Shown here in pieces: positions 33,301-39,300 of a stretch of 64,000 nucleotides of DNA. Each line of letters starts with the position of its first letter. Within the stretch, counting starts at the first letter, position 1. Origin of the DNA: Lingula anatina (taxonomy: Eukaryota > Animalia > Brachiopoda); assembly GCA_051362555.1 (NCBI GenBank), contig CM120643.1, positions 18,914,848 to 18,978,847 on the forward strand, read 5' to 3'. The notes below the pieces were generated by a model. The model was not told the DNA's origin and ran no database searches. It saw nothing but the letters and a program-made list of their open reading frames with translations. Position numbers and translations under genes: made by a program.

Positions 33301-36300
33301 TTGTATCAACTGACCGGGAACAAACCTTTTATCTGGGACTCAGACTGTGAGGGAGCATTTGTTGCATTGAAAAGGGCTTTAGCTGAACCACCTGTGTTAG
33401 CTTTGCCTAATGATACAGATCCATTCATTTTGGATACTGATGCTTCAGATGTTGCAATTGGTGCAGAATTAATCCAAGTCCAGAATGGTCGGGAAAGAGT
33501 TATTGCCTATGGTAGCTATGTCCTGACCCCTGAGCAAAGAAAATACTGCACTACCCGAAAAGAACTACTGAGTATTGTGAGGTTTACTCGCCAATTTAAA
33601 TACTATCTTTTGGGAAGAGTGTTTACTGTCAGAACAGATCATTCCAGCCTGACTTGGTTATTGCGTTTCAAAGATCCACAGGGGCAGCTAGCCAGGTGGA
33701 TTGAGGAGTTATCTCAATACCACATGATCATTACCCACCGGTCTGGTAAAAAACATACTAATGCCGACACCCTTTCTAGAAAACCAGATCGGTTAGCTCC
33801 CTGTTCTAATTATATTGCCGGCCTAAAACCCAAAGATCTCCCTTGTGGCGGTTGCAAGTTTTGTGAACGTGCCCACAAAAATTGGGGAGAATTCTTTGAA
33901 AATGTGGATGACGCAATTAACCTTGCTTCTGACGTAAATGTGGTGAGTCATGCTTCACATGGTAGTGACAGTCTGAATTTCCCAGAAAGACAAAGTCCCC
34001 AAATTGACTGTATTTCACAGCTCGTACTCAATCTTATTAGCAACTGGGATGAATGCCACAACCAAACTCATGGGCCTTCTATACAAATTTTAAGTTCAAC
34101 AGGGGAGGTCAAATTAACATCCATTGCCCCCATTCAAGACTCCAGTCAAAATTCATCATTACAATGTTGGGGTTATTCTGTTGATACCTTAAAAGAAGAA
34201 CAAGAAAAAGACCCTGATTTAGGTCATCTCCGACAATGGTTGCTAACAGGTAAAAGTCCTGAAAAGGGAGAACTCTTCGCAAGCAGTCCTGTTGCAAAGT
34301 GTTACTGGCTTAACAAAGAATTTTTCATTCTTTCACATGGCGTTATTTACAAAAAGAACATCAAAGCAGATGACCAGAAACTAGTAATTCCAGCTAGTTT
34401 AAAAAATGAAATTTTATCCCTACACCATGATATACCCACTTCTGGTCATCAAGGAATCTCCCGTACCAAATTCCGCCTGAAAGAAAAATTTTACTGGGTC
34501 AATCTCAATAAAGATGTAGAAAACTTTATTAACACTTGCGACTCTTGTAACCAAAACAAGAAAAAGGACGCTTATGGGAGAGTACCTCTAATTGAGTACA
34601 GAGCTGGAGCCCCAATGGAAAGGGTCCATATTGATTTCATGGGACCTCTACCAAAAACATCAAACGGACATGAGTATTGCCTTGTTATGGTTGATCAGTT
34701 CACCAAATGGGTAGAGTGTGTGCCTTTGCCTTCACAAACAGCTGAGGTTACAGCTAAAGCGGCAATCGATAATTTTTTCTCTAAATTTGGATATCCACTT
34801 AATATATTTTCGGACCAGGGGCGAAATTTTGAAAGTAAATTGTTTGCTGCTATGTGTCGTGCTTTGTGCATTCACAAATCCCGAACTACACCCTATAGAC
34901 CCTCCGCTAATGGCCAGGTGGAGAGGTTTAACCGTACCATCATGGATGCCGTTCGTTGTTTCATCCGTAAGGATCAACATGAATGGGATAAATACATCCA
35001 ACAAATAGCAGGGGCTATAAGATCAACCATTAACCGGAGCACAGGGTACACGCCCAATATGCTCATGTTAGGGAGGGAAGTTAATATCCCAGCCCATCTG
35101 ATGTTTCCCCATGAAACAAGTAAGCAACACCAGGATTACGGTGAATTTGTGGCTGACCTGGTGCAAAGAATACAACACTCTCATACAACAGCCAGAGAGA
35201 GACTCCAATCTACATCAAGGAGAATGAAGCGGGATTATGACCTTAAGATCTTACTCCGACCTTATGGTGAAGGGGATCTTGTCTATGTATTAGACAAATC
35301 AACACCTAAAGGCAAATCTCGCAAGCTACACTCACCATGGAAAGGACCTGGAATCATTGAGGCTAAGCTGAGCTCATATCTGTATAGAGTAAAGTTAAAG
35401 AATGCCCTTGTCGTCTTAAACCATGATCTGTTGAAACCCTGCACTGATAGGAGAATTCCAGCATGGATAAAGGCGCATAATGCAAGGAAATCTCAAACTG
35501 ACACTCTTAATGATACTACTGACACCACTTTATATTGTGTTTGTAGAGAACCATATGGTGGACGGTTCATGATTCAGTGTGATTTTTGCGATGAATGGTA
35601 TCATGGGTCCTGTGTTAATATCACAGTGACTGATGCCTTGGATATTGATAAATATAAATGTCCTCGTTGCAAACAAACTGAACAACATATAACCTAAAAT
35701 CTGTGTGTTCATTTATCATTTCAGATGGCCCAGCAGCAACAGTCCAAGAGTAAAGTTCTGGATGAACTGGAAATATGGAAGAAATTCCGTGTATTCCCAG
35801 CCATCCAAGCCGGGGACTTTGTCCAAAATCTTGTAGAAGCTCTGCCCGGTAAAACTGACAAAATCCAACAGTCAGTATTAGACATAGTGGACTTGTGTAA
35901 AATCCAAATGGCCAAAGCTAAGAAGAAGGGTGAGTATTACTCATGGCTGCGCGAATTGGCGTCTGAGGTACTCTCCAAGGGGATTTCCAATAGAAATTGG
36001 GTGGAAAAACATATCTCCAAACTCCCACCTAATCCTAAGACTGGGAAATCCAGGAAACCAGTGCGACCCAAACCTATTGGGGAGCCAAGTGTTTTCTCGG
36101 GACCAGTCAGGGATATAAGGTTGGGAACTGACCCCACTATTACCCAAACCTCTTTTGTGGTGTCTGGGGGAGGGGGGACTTCCACACCAGTTCCTTCAAC
36201 ATCAGCAGAGGCCATGGAGGTGGACATCCTGGAGGGGGAGGTCTATTCTGGGGAGTCTGGCAATTCTTCGGAATTGCTTGGATCCTCAGATGGATCTGCT

Positions 36301-39300
36301 ACCAAAGGGAGCCCTAAACCCCGTGAGTCTCCTTTGGAAAAGTCCCCAAGCCTTGTGTATTCCATGGAGGGTAGTAGAAGGGCAGCCTTGGCGCGTATTG
36401 CCGCGAATTTACCACCCCCATCTTCTGCTTCTGTCTATGTTAGTACGGGGGAGAAAGCCCATTCAGTTGGGCAAGTATCCCAAGCCGGAAAACAAGAGCC
36501 TGCCAGTACGGGGGAGAAAGCTCATTCAGTTGGGCAAGTATCCCAAACCGGAAAACAGATTAAAAGGCCAATTCCATCCTTAATGAGCCTCTCCTTCCCT
36601 TCCTTGCCTAGTACGGGGGAGAAAGCCCATTCAGTTGGGCAAGTATCCCAAACCGGAAAAAGCCTTTCCTTCCCTTCCTTGCCTAGTACGGGGGAGAAAG
36701 CCCATTCAGTTGGGCAAGTATCCCAAACCGGAAAAAGCATCAATCCCTTTTCTGAATCTGCGAGTACGGGGGAGAAATCCCAATCCGGAAAAAGCAGAAA
36801 GAAGAAAAGAAAGCCCAAATCAGCAAAATCGTCCAAGTCAGGTCAGTCTGTGCAGAAGCCAGCGACTGTGGCTGCATCTGGGGAATCTCGGAAACGAGAA
36901 TCTCTGATTGAGTCTGTGGGGGAACCTAGCCTAAAAGTGGCTAAGGTTGAACCCAAAATGACAAAATGTCAGGTCCCTGGATGTAGTGACCCCAATATTG
37001 AAAGGGGTGCAGTCAAGGTACATGCTATGACCCATATACCTGAAATTTTTGACGAGGGTTTGGGTACCATCCCTGAAATCGTGGCTCTTAGGGTGAAAGC
37101 ATTGGAGTGCGCCACATCGCTCATTGTTGGCATTAATAAACCTTTACAAAGCCTATGCGATTTTATTTCTGCATCAGGCGAAAAATTTGGCCTCAAAAAG
37201 ATCAGGGGGTTTGGCGAAGCCCAACGGCAAGCCATGCAAGCCTTCTGTAAAGAGCTTGGTGTCACTCTGCCCCAGCAAGTAACCCTAAAGCCAGCCAACT
37301 CTGTGGGTGCACTTGTACATTGGCGAGCTGTGCTGAAGCTAGCTTCATGCATGAATCCAGTCCAACGGGATTTATGGCTCAATAATTTCAAGGTGCCTGC
37401 AGGTATCCAGAGGACAACAGTGGCAGACGTAGTGATGGGAGTCGGAGTCCAGGCTTTCGATAGCCATTTCCACTTGGACAGGACTCTCCAAGCTTATAAT
37501 CTGCCGTCCAATGGAACCCTGGAGAATCTGAGGGAGAAAGTTCCTGTGCCAGAGGGTAAGGAGGTCAATCTGGTGGGTTCGGTAGCGGTGTATTGTGATC
37601 CGGAGAGGTATCCAACTCGGAGTGCCTTGCTAACTAAGCCGGAGAACATGCACATAGCTATTGGATTTCATCCGAAAAAGGCCATCCAATCCCCTGCTTT
37701 GCGGGAACAGTATCTCAAAGACTTCAGGACGTTGGTTAAAGATTCACATGTCCAAGCCATAGGAGAGGTTGGTCTCGATTTCTCAGAGTCCTCCCATGTC
37801 TGGCAGGATCAGGAAGATCTGCTTAATGATTTACTGCCCTCAGTAGTTGACAGCAAGGTGTTAGTGCTGCATTGTCGTGGGATGGGTAGTGGTGACTGTG
37901 TGTATGCCATCAGGCATCTGTTGTCAATCCTTCAAAGGAACAACATCCCTGAGCATCAGCCCATCCATTTCCACTGTTTTACAGGGAGCAAGCAGCTCAT
38001 GGAGATGTGGTTGCGTGTTTATTACAACACGTACTTTGGCTTCACCAGGCTGGTGAATACCTTCAACAAATCCCAGTTGGAGGCGGTCAAAGCTGTCCCG
38101 GAGTGTAAACTACTCTTGGAATCTGACGCACCATATTTTCATGCCCAAAACATCAGGGCTTCTACACCATATTTGCTGTTTGAGACAGCGGAAATCATAG
38201 CAGAGGCTAGGGGTGTCGAGGTTAGGCATATACTCGACATTACTGTCACAAATGGTATTAAATTATACCAAAATGAGTAAACTGGTCATTTACCATCTTA
38301 CCAAACTATATATATACCATCTTACCAAATTACAAAGTACAGCTTTTTATTTAGTTTTTTACATTTGTATATATGAATATAGAACAAAAAAAAAAAAAAA
38401 AAAAAAAAAAAAAAAAATTTATATATATATATATATATAAAAAAAAAATATGCACTAATGTAGAATATTGCACCATTATTATAGATATATTTATTTTCAT
38501 GTACATAGTTTGTACAAACTGTTTATATCAAAAAGGGAAGAATTGTCCCATATTTTAGTTAACAAGTAAAGCAATTTTTATGCAAAGGAAAAATATTCCA
38601 TGATATTAGTTTTTGTACTTTTGCTGTACTATTATTTCTGACCAGTTATGCTGATTATGACCGAGACCCCCTAACCCATGATCCTTGCTACTGTGTTGCT
38701 GTGTCTAAGTTTTACTGGACACGTCTTTCAGGAAGTACTGAGAGTGTATACTTTTCACAAGGAAAACTGATTGACTTAGGCAACTAGTAATCCGGAAAAA
38801 TGCAGAGTGGATACAGATTTCCTTACATTTTAGTTTTAACCCAAATTTTGTACAAAATCAAATTCTATTTATTCAAAATTATGGGCTGGTCCCATCATTA
38901 TTTTTTAATGTTCCATAGGCTGGACCTATGGTTTAAAAGGAATTTGGGGAACTCCTTGTACATATTCATTACCATCATAAATTATGGGCTGGTCCCATTT
39001 TTCATTTTCAAAAGGCTGGTCCTGTAATTTCATAAATTTCATTCCCCTTTTTATTCTAAATTGGGCGGGTTCCCAATCTTTTTTAAAAAGAAAATGGGGG
39101 GGAATGTTGTGATTACGGTTGTGGCTTGTATTGAATAAAGCGCCATCTATTAATATGATGTTGCGCCACCTAGCAGTATGAGATAGACAGCGGAAAATTT
39201 GAGAGCTATCTTCACTCAACCATTCCACTGAGCGACCTCGCTAGAGAGACACCTCCGTAGAATCAGCACCTCCTTTGTATATATTCTTCACTAAGCAAAT

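Follow-up and report, generated by a model that had tools for sequence, protein, structure and literature searches.

A Ty3/Gypsy element with a TatD gene

The window analysed here is a 64,000-nucleotide stretch of the Lingula anatina genome (assembly GCA_051362555.1, contig CM120643.1, positions 18,914,848 to 18,978,847, forward strand), and it contains a Ty3/Gypsy long terminal repeat (LTR) retrotransposon at 25753-39518 on the + strand. The third open reading frame (ORF3) of this element encodes a TatD-family nuclease. The initial annotation had described an uninterrupted ORF of 851 amino acids (aa) between integrase and the polypurine tract (PPT), inside matched LTRs; the locus holds exactly this arrangement, with ORF3 at 35725-38280 and identical 414-bp LTRs. 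The parts of ORF3 are as follows.

35725..38280, +: ORF3, 851 aa, open from its own ATG (ORF and Pfam)
35725..36024, +: N-terminal helical domain, aa 1-100 (predicted model, pLDDT 73-97)
36025..36960, +: linker, predicted to be disordered, containing 75-nt repeats and the basic cluster RKKKRK, aa 358-363 (model and sequence)
36967..37389, +: C2H2-like zinc finger and helical domain, aa 415-555, family-specific (alignment, model)
37456..38271, +: TatD nuclease domain, class II (HxH) (Pfam, fold, motifs)

The C-terminus of ORF3 is a TatD domain both by sequence and by predicted fold. Residues 578-849 match Pfam TatD_DNase (PF01026) with an E value of 8.7e-39 and 134 bits against a cut-off of 27, the sole Pfam match in the protein, and all seven metal and catalytic residues were located: H581/H583, E681 (GEVGLD), H716 (LHCR), H750 (FHCF) and E799/D801. 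This N-terminal HxH followed by E, H, H, E and D ligands places ORF3 in class II, a group defined by its HxH ligand set (PMC10085689). An AlphaFold2 model of aa 406-851 reached a mean pLDDT of 90.9, and the first 16 Foldseek matches listed for it were all TatD-family or uncharacterised TatD-like hydrolases, the best with E 9e-14 and a target TM of about 0.8. The motif-based assignment made from the letters alone is therefore borne out by profile and predicted fold.

The rest of ORF3 is less familiar. Foldseek returned no match to aa 1-575 at E<=0.001, a further fold search of the same residues gave generic helical matches only (Z <8, over aa 1-102, with the zinc-finger domain barely covered), and the ESM Atlas returned nothing at >=0.9 for aa 405-575. 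We thus describe the N-terminal helical domain, which is weakly conserved among relatives, as one without a specific homologue in fold searches and claim no new fold. In the zinc finger, C415 and C420 are invariant among family members and H433 and H437 are kept in at least 90%, while the zinc-finger/helical domain as a whole is missing from host TATDN2-like and bacterial proteins. In 37 of the 63 long members a basic cluster is found no more than 80 aa from the finger; shuffled sequences gave 10.7 (maximum 21). With a maximum hydropathy of 1.66, ORF3 has no transmembrane segment, and it shows no env similarity (Pfam: TatD alone); 60 of the 63 long members likewise lack a transmembrane-like segment. 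A second protein copy of 826 aa corresponds to Lingula anatina LOC106164908, and an A-run lies 3' of ORF3 at 38387-38417.

The remaining parts of the element identify it as Ty3/Gypsy by its paired LTRs, target site duplication (TSD), primer binding site (PBS), PPT and the pol order protease, reverse transcriptase (RT), RNase H, integrase.

25749..25752, +: TSD TATC, left copy; the same 4 bases flank the 3' LTR
25753..26166, +: 5' LTR, 414 bp, TG...CA, 100% identical to the 3' LTR
26169..26186, +: PBS-like sequence, beginning TGGCGAC at 26169
26979..29432, +: gag-like ORF with N-terminal helix-hairpin-helix, PNMA-like capsid region and zinc knuckle (Pfam matches)
29384..31670, +: pol, first part, protease and start of RT, in the -1 frame relative to gag
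31671..32972, no strand: non-coding insertion of 1,302 bp, splitting RT; terminal inverted repeats of 14 bp, direct repeats of 5 bp on either side
32973..35697, +: pol, second part, remaining RT, RNase H and integrase (Pfam and motifs)
35536..35670, +: PHD finger at the integrase C-terminus (PF00628, E 2.5e-9)
39085..39104, +: PPT, directly 5' of the 3' LTR
39105..39518, +: 3' LTR, 414 bp, 100% identical to the 5' LTR
39519..39522, +: TSD TATC, right copy, matching the left

The identical LTRs and the TATC duplication indicate a young insertion. The PBS-like sequence at 26169 is presumably of tRNA-Ser type; the window contains no tRNA gene for comparison. In the gag-like ORF the Pfam matches are PF00633 (E 4.5e-6), PF14893 (E 9e-4) and PF00098 (E 0.04), and the helix-hairpin-helix also matches ComEA (E 1e-4). 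A motif check found the RT, RNase H and integrase sets all present. The high-copy 1,302-bp insertion that splits RT had gone unmentioned in the initial annotation; pol of the window copy is interrupted, and this copy does not qualify as autonomous. RNA contigs from three sequencing runs (X1, X2 and X3) skip the insertion and therefore derive from other copies or alleles.

The PHD finger is closest to those of PHF2 and BPTF (E 1e-17). The fingers of these two proteins read H3K4me3 through an aromatic cage. Cage positions M and W are kept in all 15 PHD fingers found, and another cage position is aromatic (Y/W) in just six of the 15. From the end of integrase to the ORF3 ATG there are 27 nt. A read-through fusion of ORF3 to integrase was rejected on the pol stop at 35697, the separate ATG and a splice joint described below; a nested host gene was rejected on the lack of introns and on clade linkage, and replacement of RNase H by TatD on the intact RNase H motif set.

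Clade linkage, selection and relation to TATDN2

Linkage was assessed in an assembly entered as a Sedimenticola bacterial metagenome-assembled genome (MAG; G001). It contains 141 integrase and 29 TatD matches, and it is therefore evidently contaminated with animal repeats; 56 stretches of it, which cover a part of the 141 integrase matches, were analysed. All ten of the best-matching integrase contigs carry a TatD ORF. On 21 contigs bearing a family TatD, the ORF immediately follows integrase or PHD in 15 cases and is accompanied by other pol or gag parts in two; the remaining four contigs are too short to judge. In a tree of 47 integrases, built without named Gypsy reference elements, the 12 with a PHD finger form one clade (100/100) and every one of them has TatD downstream. 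One extra TatD carrier (C1247) falls in a neighbouring clade without PHD, and the other 34 integrases have no TatD on their contigs, only 11 of these contigs extending at least 3 kb downstream. The TatD tree broadly mirrors the integrase subgroups, and a metagenome locus (L001) holds a whole related unit of gag, pol, PHD and ORF3. The TatD ORF3 is consistently linked to one PHD-finger Gypsy clade and is not the one-off capture that the initial annotation had listed as a refuting outcome.

By protein match, named relatives occur in bivalves, a gastropod, a sea urchin and a sea star. Collection scans dominated by bacterial TatD, two of which spanned 2 of 64 parts and in which one short metagenome locus (L008) was not scored, yielded family members at two of 80 metagenome loci (L001, L002), at a single one of 80 genome loci (L081) and at none of ten viral loci. 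Family members in mollusc, echinoderm and brachiopod gene sets are likely mis-annotated as TATDN2 or YcfH-like, and more than 20 element TatD genes of the contaminated MAG enter protein databases as bacterial (symbiont) TatD.

Some variants of the arrangement were also observed. A second group comprises zinc finger plus TatD ORFs of about 500 aa without the N-terminal domain (L213, which is C1247 of G001, L193, L194, L195, P0082 and P0097); one member of this short-ORF group follows a PHD-less integrase, and the two other members of that integrase clade show no ORF3. Two contigs of the MAG (L205, or C329, and L214, or C1071) have integrase ends 97% identical (pS 0.21) and TatD domains 63% identical (pS 0.76), with nucleotide similarity falling about 300 nt into ORF3, a pattern that suggests either an exchange of ORF3 modules among families or a chimeric assembly. 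L222 encodes, 3' of a Gypsy integrase that has no TatD, a 270-aa ORF (550-1362, minus strand) with a weak GDSL/SGNH match (PF13472, E 0.044); it is reminiscent of rotifer esterase ORF3s and may be part of that element.

Conservation points to a gene in use. Of 121 family members whose domain is nearly complete, some of them near-duplicates, 117 retain all seven TatD residues, and the active site persists in relatives at 30-50% identity. For the TatD domain we computed the ratio of nonsynonymous to synonymous substitution (dN/dS) by the Nei-Gojobori method: among the 14 pairs listed it is 0.13 in both close pairs (C13/C419 and, from the second group, C889/C535), 0.14-0.16 in three distant pairs, and saturated in the remaining nine. 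The ORF3 TatD domain is under purifying selection, and neutral evolution, which the initial annotation had named as a refuting outcome, does not describe it. A few members are broken (C555, C1280, C942). Taken together, ORF3 is very probably a functional accessory gene of the clade.

As to its origin, a 73-row tree united the element domains (main clade 99/98) with TATDN2-like proteins, the row L003 from a prokaryotic contig and two long QatD-like rows in a group with 100/100 support, separate from YcfH-, YjjV- and class I-like rows. A quick mixture-model tree, run without the QatD rows and P0165, gave 99 for elements plus TATDN2-like proteins, a set in which only the vertebrate and coral members carry names. 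Scores agree: against the family hidden Markov model, 143 TATDN2-like proteins have a median of 161 bits, 72 prokaryotic TatDs a median of 110 (maximum 128) and QatD, the lowest-scoring group, a median of 70. In other searches the PDB entries of TATDN1 and TATDN3 scored 32 and 42 bits, and TATDN2-like hits about 65-79 bits. Elements and TATDN2-like proteins share a longer spacing from HxH to GxHP (63 and 61 versus 52 aa), and a CDP-type motif occurs in 82 of 121 family members, 67 of 150 TATDN2-like proteins and 3 of 169 others. Read from these sequences, ORF3 likely goes back to an early capture from a TATDN2-type ancestor. L003:5736-6533 is itself a TatD encoded on a metagenome contig; both trees place it among the eukaryotic TATDN2-like proteins. 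The QatD rows sit beside the elements with weak support (82/40) on a long branch, and a QatD identity for ORF3 was rejected: it scores 68 bits against the NF041926 cut-off of 230, and its neighbours are gag and pol, with no qatABC.

A spliced ORF3 message

Eight RNA or DNA runs were compared with the window (X1, X2, X3, X9, X11, X14, X15 and X17). They bear on two further features.

26052..26060, +: splice donor in the LTR, exon end 26054 (joint seen in X1 and X2)
35705..35724, +: splice acceptor, pyrimidine tract and CAG, 0 nt before the ORF3 ATG

Runs X1 and X2 contain a joint from 26052 to 35723 (GT..AG, cut +2) by which the 5' LTR is spliced to ORF3. X2 is RNA, because it also skips host introns; X1 we take to be RNA from its size and study, since none of the datasets listed as containing the sequence is recorded as RNA. 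In X1 the spliced form has a depth of 96.8 versus 10.7 for pol, and in X2 271 versus 28.9 for the unspliced contig, so that the spliced ORF3 RNA is about 9-fold deeper than the unspliced form, a ratio that is indicative only, contig depth being a poor measure of expression. A similar acceptor is seen beyond this copy: in 12 of 15 relatives the pol stop precedes a pyrimidine-rich YAG that has an ATG no more than 16 nt further on. Reads of X11 and X14 over ORF3 follow a nearly all sense pattern, X15 has zero reads inside the element, and the DNA-like run X9 has no LTR-ORF3 joint among the joints listed (six others were not displayed).

Five raw RNA reads of X14 exit the LTR exactly at the donor (26054) and continue into sequence absent from the window, as might happen if the LTR of a copy at some other site is spliced to a host transcript. 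In X9, over 26093-37300, the 5' leader and ORF3 are covered and gag-pol is almost without depth, which may reflect a deleted derivative keeping ORF3 or a filter effect. A similar layout is seen in C1122 and C1280, where TatD lies close behind RT or protease pieces.

Around the element, minus-strand host exons lie at 11500-24000 and 40800-49200, with cysteine-rich and Gly/Thr/Pro repeats on one side and vWA domains on the other; these exons probably belong to a single large gene for a matrix protein, with the element lying antisense in one of its introns. At 24438-25377 a further element, whose inverted arms measure 110 nt, is transcribed and very deep in X9, and X15 reads join foreign sequence within it at 24849-24850. 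A 300-nt direct repeat with 86% identity (51943-52242 and 55505-55804) is spaced 3.6 kb apart.

Proposed function and comparison with known systems

We tentatively propose, at somewhat less than even confidence for the mechanism as a whole, that ORF3 is a spliced, trans-acting nuclear nuclease that trims R-loop RNA at element copies. Mechanistically, the protein would be expressed from its own LTR-to-ORF3 message and act as a two-metal 3'-5' nuclease, predicted to be active. It would enter the nucleus in trans and, as host TATDN2 does, trim RNA from R-loops at transcribed or newly integrated copies, the gain for the element, in germ cells, being continued transcription and a lower level of DNA damage or silencing. 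The parts differ in strength. Catalytic activity is highly probable from the conserved residues. A nuclear role in trans is reasonably probable; it is favoured because the RNA is separate and apparently abundant, a basic cluster lies by the finger, the RT, RNase H and integrase motifs are intact and no longer fused form of ORF3 was found among 3,830 candidates of 1,491-4,255 aa, the last being weak evidence. That R-loop RNA is the substrate that matters is possible, short of an even chance, and is argued by analogy: E681, E799 and D801 correspond by motif to TATDN2 E593, E705 and D707, residues at which mutation weakens or eliminates the cutting of R-loop RNA (PMC10711561), and tatdn2 shields medaka germ cells from R-loop damage (PMC12709183).

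Several observations weigh against this proposal and the TATDN2 kinship behind it. In both trees the element domains are sister to the TATDN2-like rows and not nested among them, and the trees were built without TATDN1 and TATDN3. Approximately unbiased tests did not reject grouping the elements with two YcfH-like rows (p 0.09) or two YjjV-like rows (p 0.17); of the phylogenetic placement between host and bacterial TatDs, the kinship to TATDN2 holds in two trees while a bacterial origin is unrejected. Nothing in TATDN2 corresponds to the zinc-finger domain or to the N-terminal one. TatD enzymes vary in substrate, and TATDN1, TATDN3 and QatD are DNA 3' exonucleases and AP endonucleases (PMC10085689, PMC13434339). 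On the expression side, the joint appears in two of the eight runs, both from one study, the depth ratio carries the limit given above, X3 shows the unspliced form alone with no joint listed, and the raw RNA runs X11, X14, X15 and X17, at low coverage, show no splice joint.

Other roles can be weighed on the same evidence. ORF3 could be a replication enzyme in the particle or pre-integration complex, trimming cDNA 3' ends or helping AP-site or gap repair after integration, as the initial annotation had suggested among other functions. Strict retention in all 12 clade members fits such a core step, and the N-terminal helical or zinc-finger domain may dock to Gag or integrase. We nevertheless consider it unlikely: the separate RNA is apparently some 9-fold above genomic RNA, whereas Pol enzymes are made in few copies, the element has its own RT, RNase H and integrase motifs, no fused form was found (weak evidence), and 34 other Gypsy integrases of the MAG have no TatD on their contigs, so the need is not general. 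The spliced RNA, the cluster resembling a nuclear localisation signal (NLS) and the intact RNase H fit a nuclear trans factor better than a particle-bound cDNA-processing enzyme. A TREX1-like clearance of stray cytoplasmic cDNA, by which the element would escape innate DNA sensing, or destruction of competitors' cDNA, would suit the single-stranded DNA 3' exonuclease activity typical of TatD (PMC10085689) and the attack of QatD on viral replication intermediates (PMC13434339); with an NLS-like cluster enriched in the family, no membrane anchor and no pointer to immune signalling in the data, we hold it to be quite improbable.

An improbable reading, if a slightly less remote one, is that the nuclease defends the element against RNA silencing and, starting at the 3' end, digests small RNAs, antisense transcripts or their precursors. 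TATDN2 cleaves hairpin RNA besides R-loops (PMC10711561), and RNA-type 3' exonucleases recur as ORF3 in the rotifer elements Juno and Vesta (PMC5408684). High separate expression and the basic cluster would suit a trans-acting suppressor. Mature piRNAs, however, bear a 3' methyl group that usually blocks 3' exonucleases. Finally, ORF3 might be a passenger, a captured host gene or retrocopy without a role for the element or kept for host benefit. The A-run behind ORF3, the few broken members and the rotifer ORF3s, which show no clear departure from neutrality (PMC5408684), speak for this; its presence in 12 of 12 clade members, an active site kept at 30-50% identity, a dN/dS of 0.13, the conserved acceptor and family-specific domains absent from host TATDN2 leave it very improbable and already largely refuted.

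Returning to the R-loop proposal, an extension that we regard as doubtful on present evidence would be an old, undescribed Gypsy lineage, spread over brachiopods, molluscs and echinoderms, with a chromatin toolkit: a PHD finger of the H3K4me3-reader type on integrase, a DNA-binding helix-hairpin-helix on Gag and a separately spliced, abundant, TATDN2-related nuclease that clears R-loop RNA in trans and so keeps copies active and germ cells alive. If true, a transposon origin would apply to many of the genes that are annotated as 'TATDN2' or 'YcfH-like' in the genomes of shellfish and in symbiont MAGs.

The initial annotation knew of no TatD-encoding LTR lineage, and literature searches, judged by title and the opening of the abstract, found no element-borne TatD described; Repbase, subscription journals and supplements lay outside their scope and may hold one. 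TatD is absent from the available main text of PMC5408684, PMC6238403, PMC8556966, PMC6338049, PMC6431247 and bioRxiv 10.64898/2026.05.21.726589, and the TatD-bearing Gypsy lineage is apparently unpublished. Among known systems, host TATDN2 is the nearest cellular group by trees and scores. It shares with ORF3 the class II HxH site, the CDP-type motif, the longer post-HxH spacing and a long disordered N-terminal part before a C-terminal TatD (PMC10711561), whereas ORF3 is about 30% identical, sister and not nested, carries extra zinc-finger/helical and N-terminal domains, and is intronless, element-borne and multi-copy. QatD of the bacterial qatABCD anti-phage system is likewise a class II TatD co-opted for genetic conflict (PMC13434339), from which ORF3 is set apart by its profile score. 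The env of errantiviruses such as Drosophila gypsy occupies the same position between pol and PPT and uses a spliced subgenomic RNA (PMC5408684); ORF3, by contrast, is a predicted soluble enzyme, with neither a transmembrane segment nor env similarity.

An enzymatic, non-env ORF3 as such is already known from the bdelloid rotifer LTR retrotransposons Juno and Vesta, which carry a DEDDy 3'-5' exonuclease (PMC5408684). These elements are also Gypsy-like, with ORF3 after pol, intact catalytic residues and a 3'-5' exonuclease class, function being read from sequence in both cases. The folds differ, RNase H-like DEDDy there and TIM-barrel TatD here, and Pfam and fold searches found no DEDDy domain in our ORF3. 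The rotifer ORF3s are patchy and near neutral, whereas the TatD ORF3 is fixed across an old clade under purifying selection. To the short list of enzymes known from the env slot of LTR elements, TatD adds a second nuclease fold, unrelated to the first; here the gene is retained throughout its clade, evolves under purifying selection and has a splice joint in RNA. That 3'-5' nucleases have been captured more than once points to a need which LTR elements share and do not otherwise meet.

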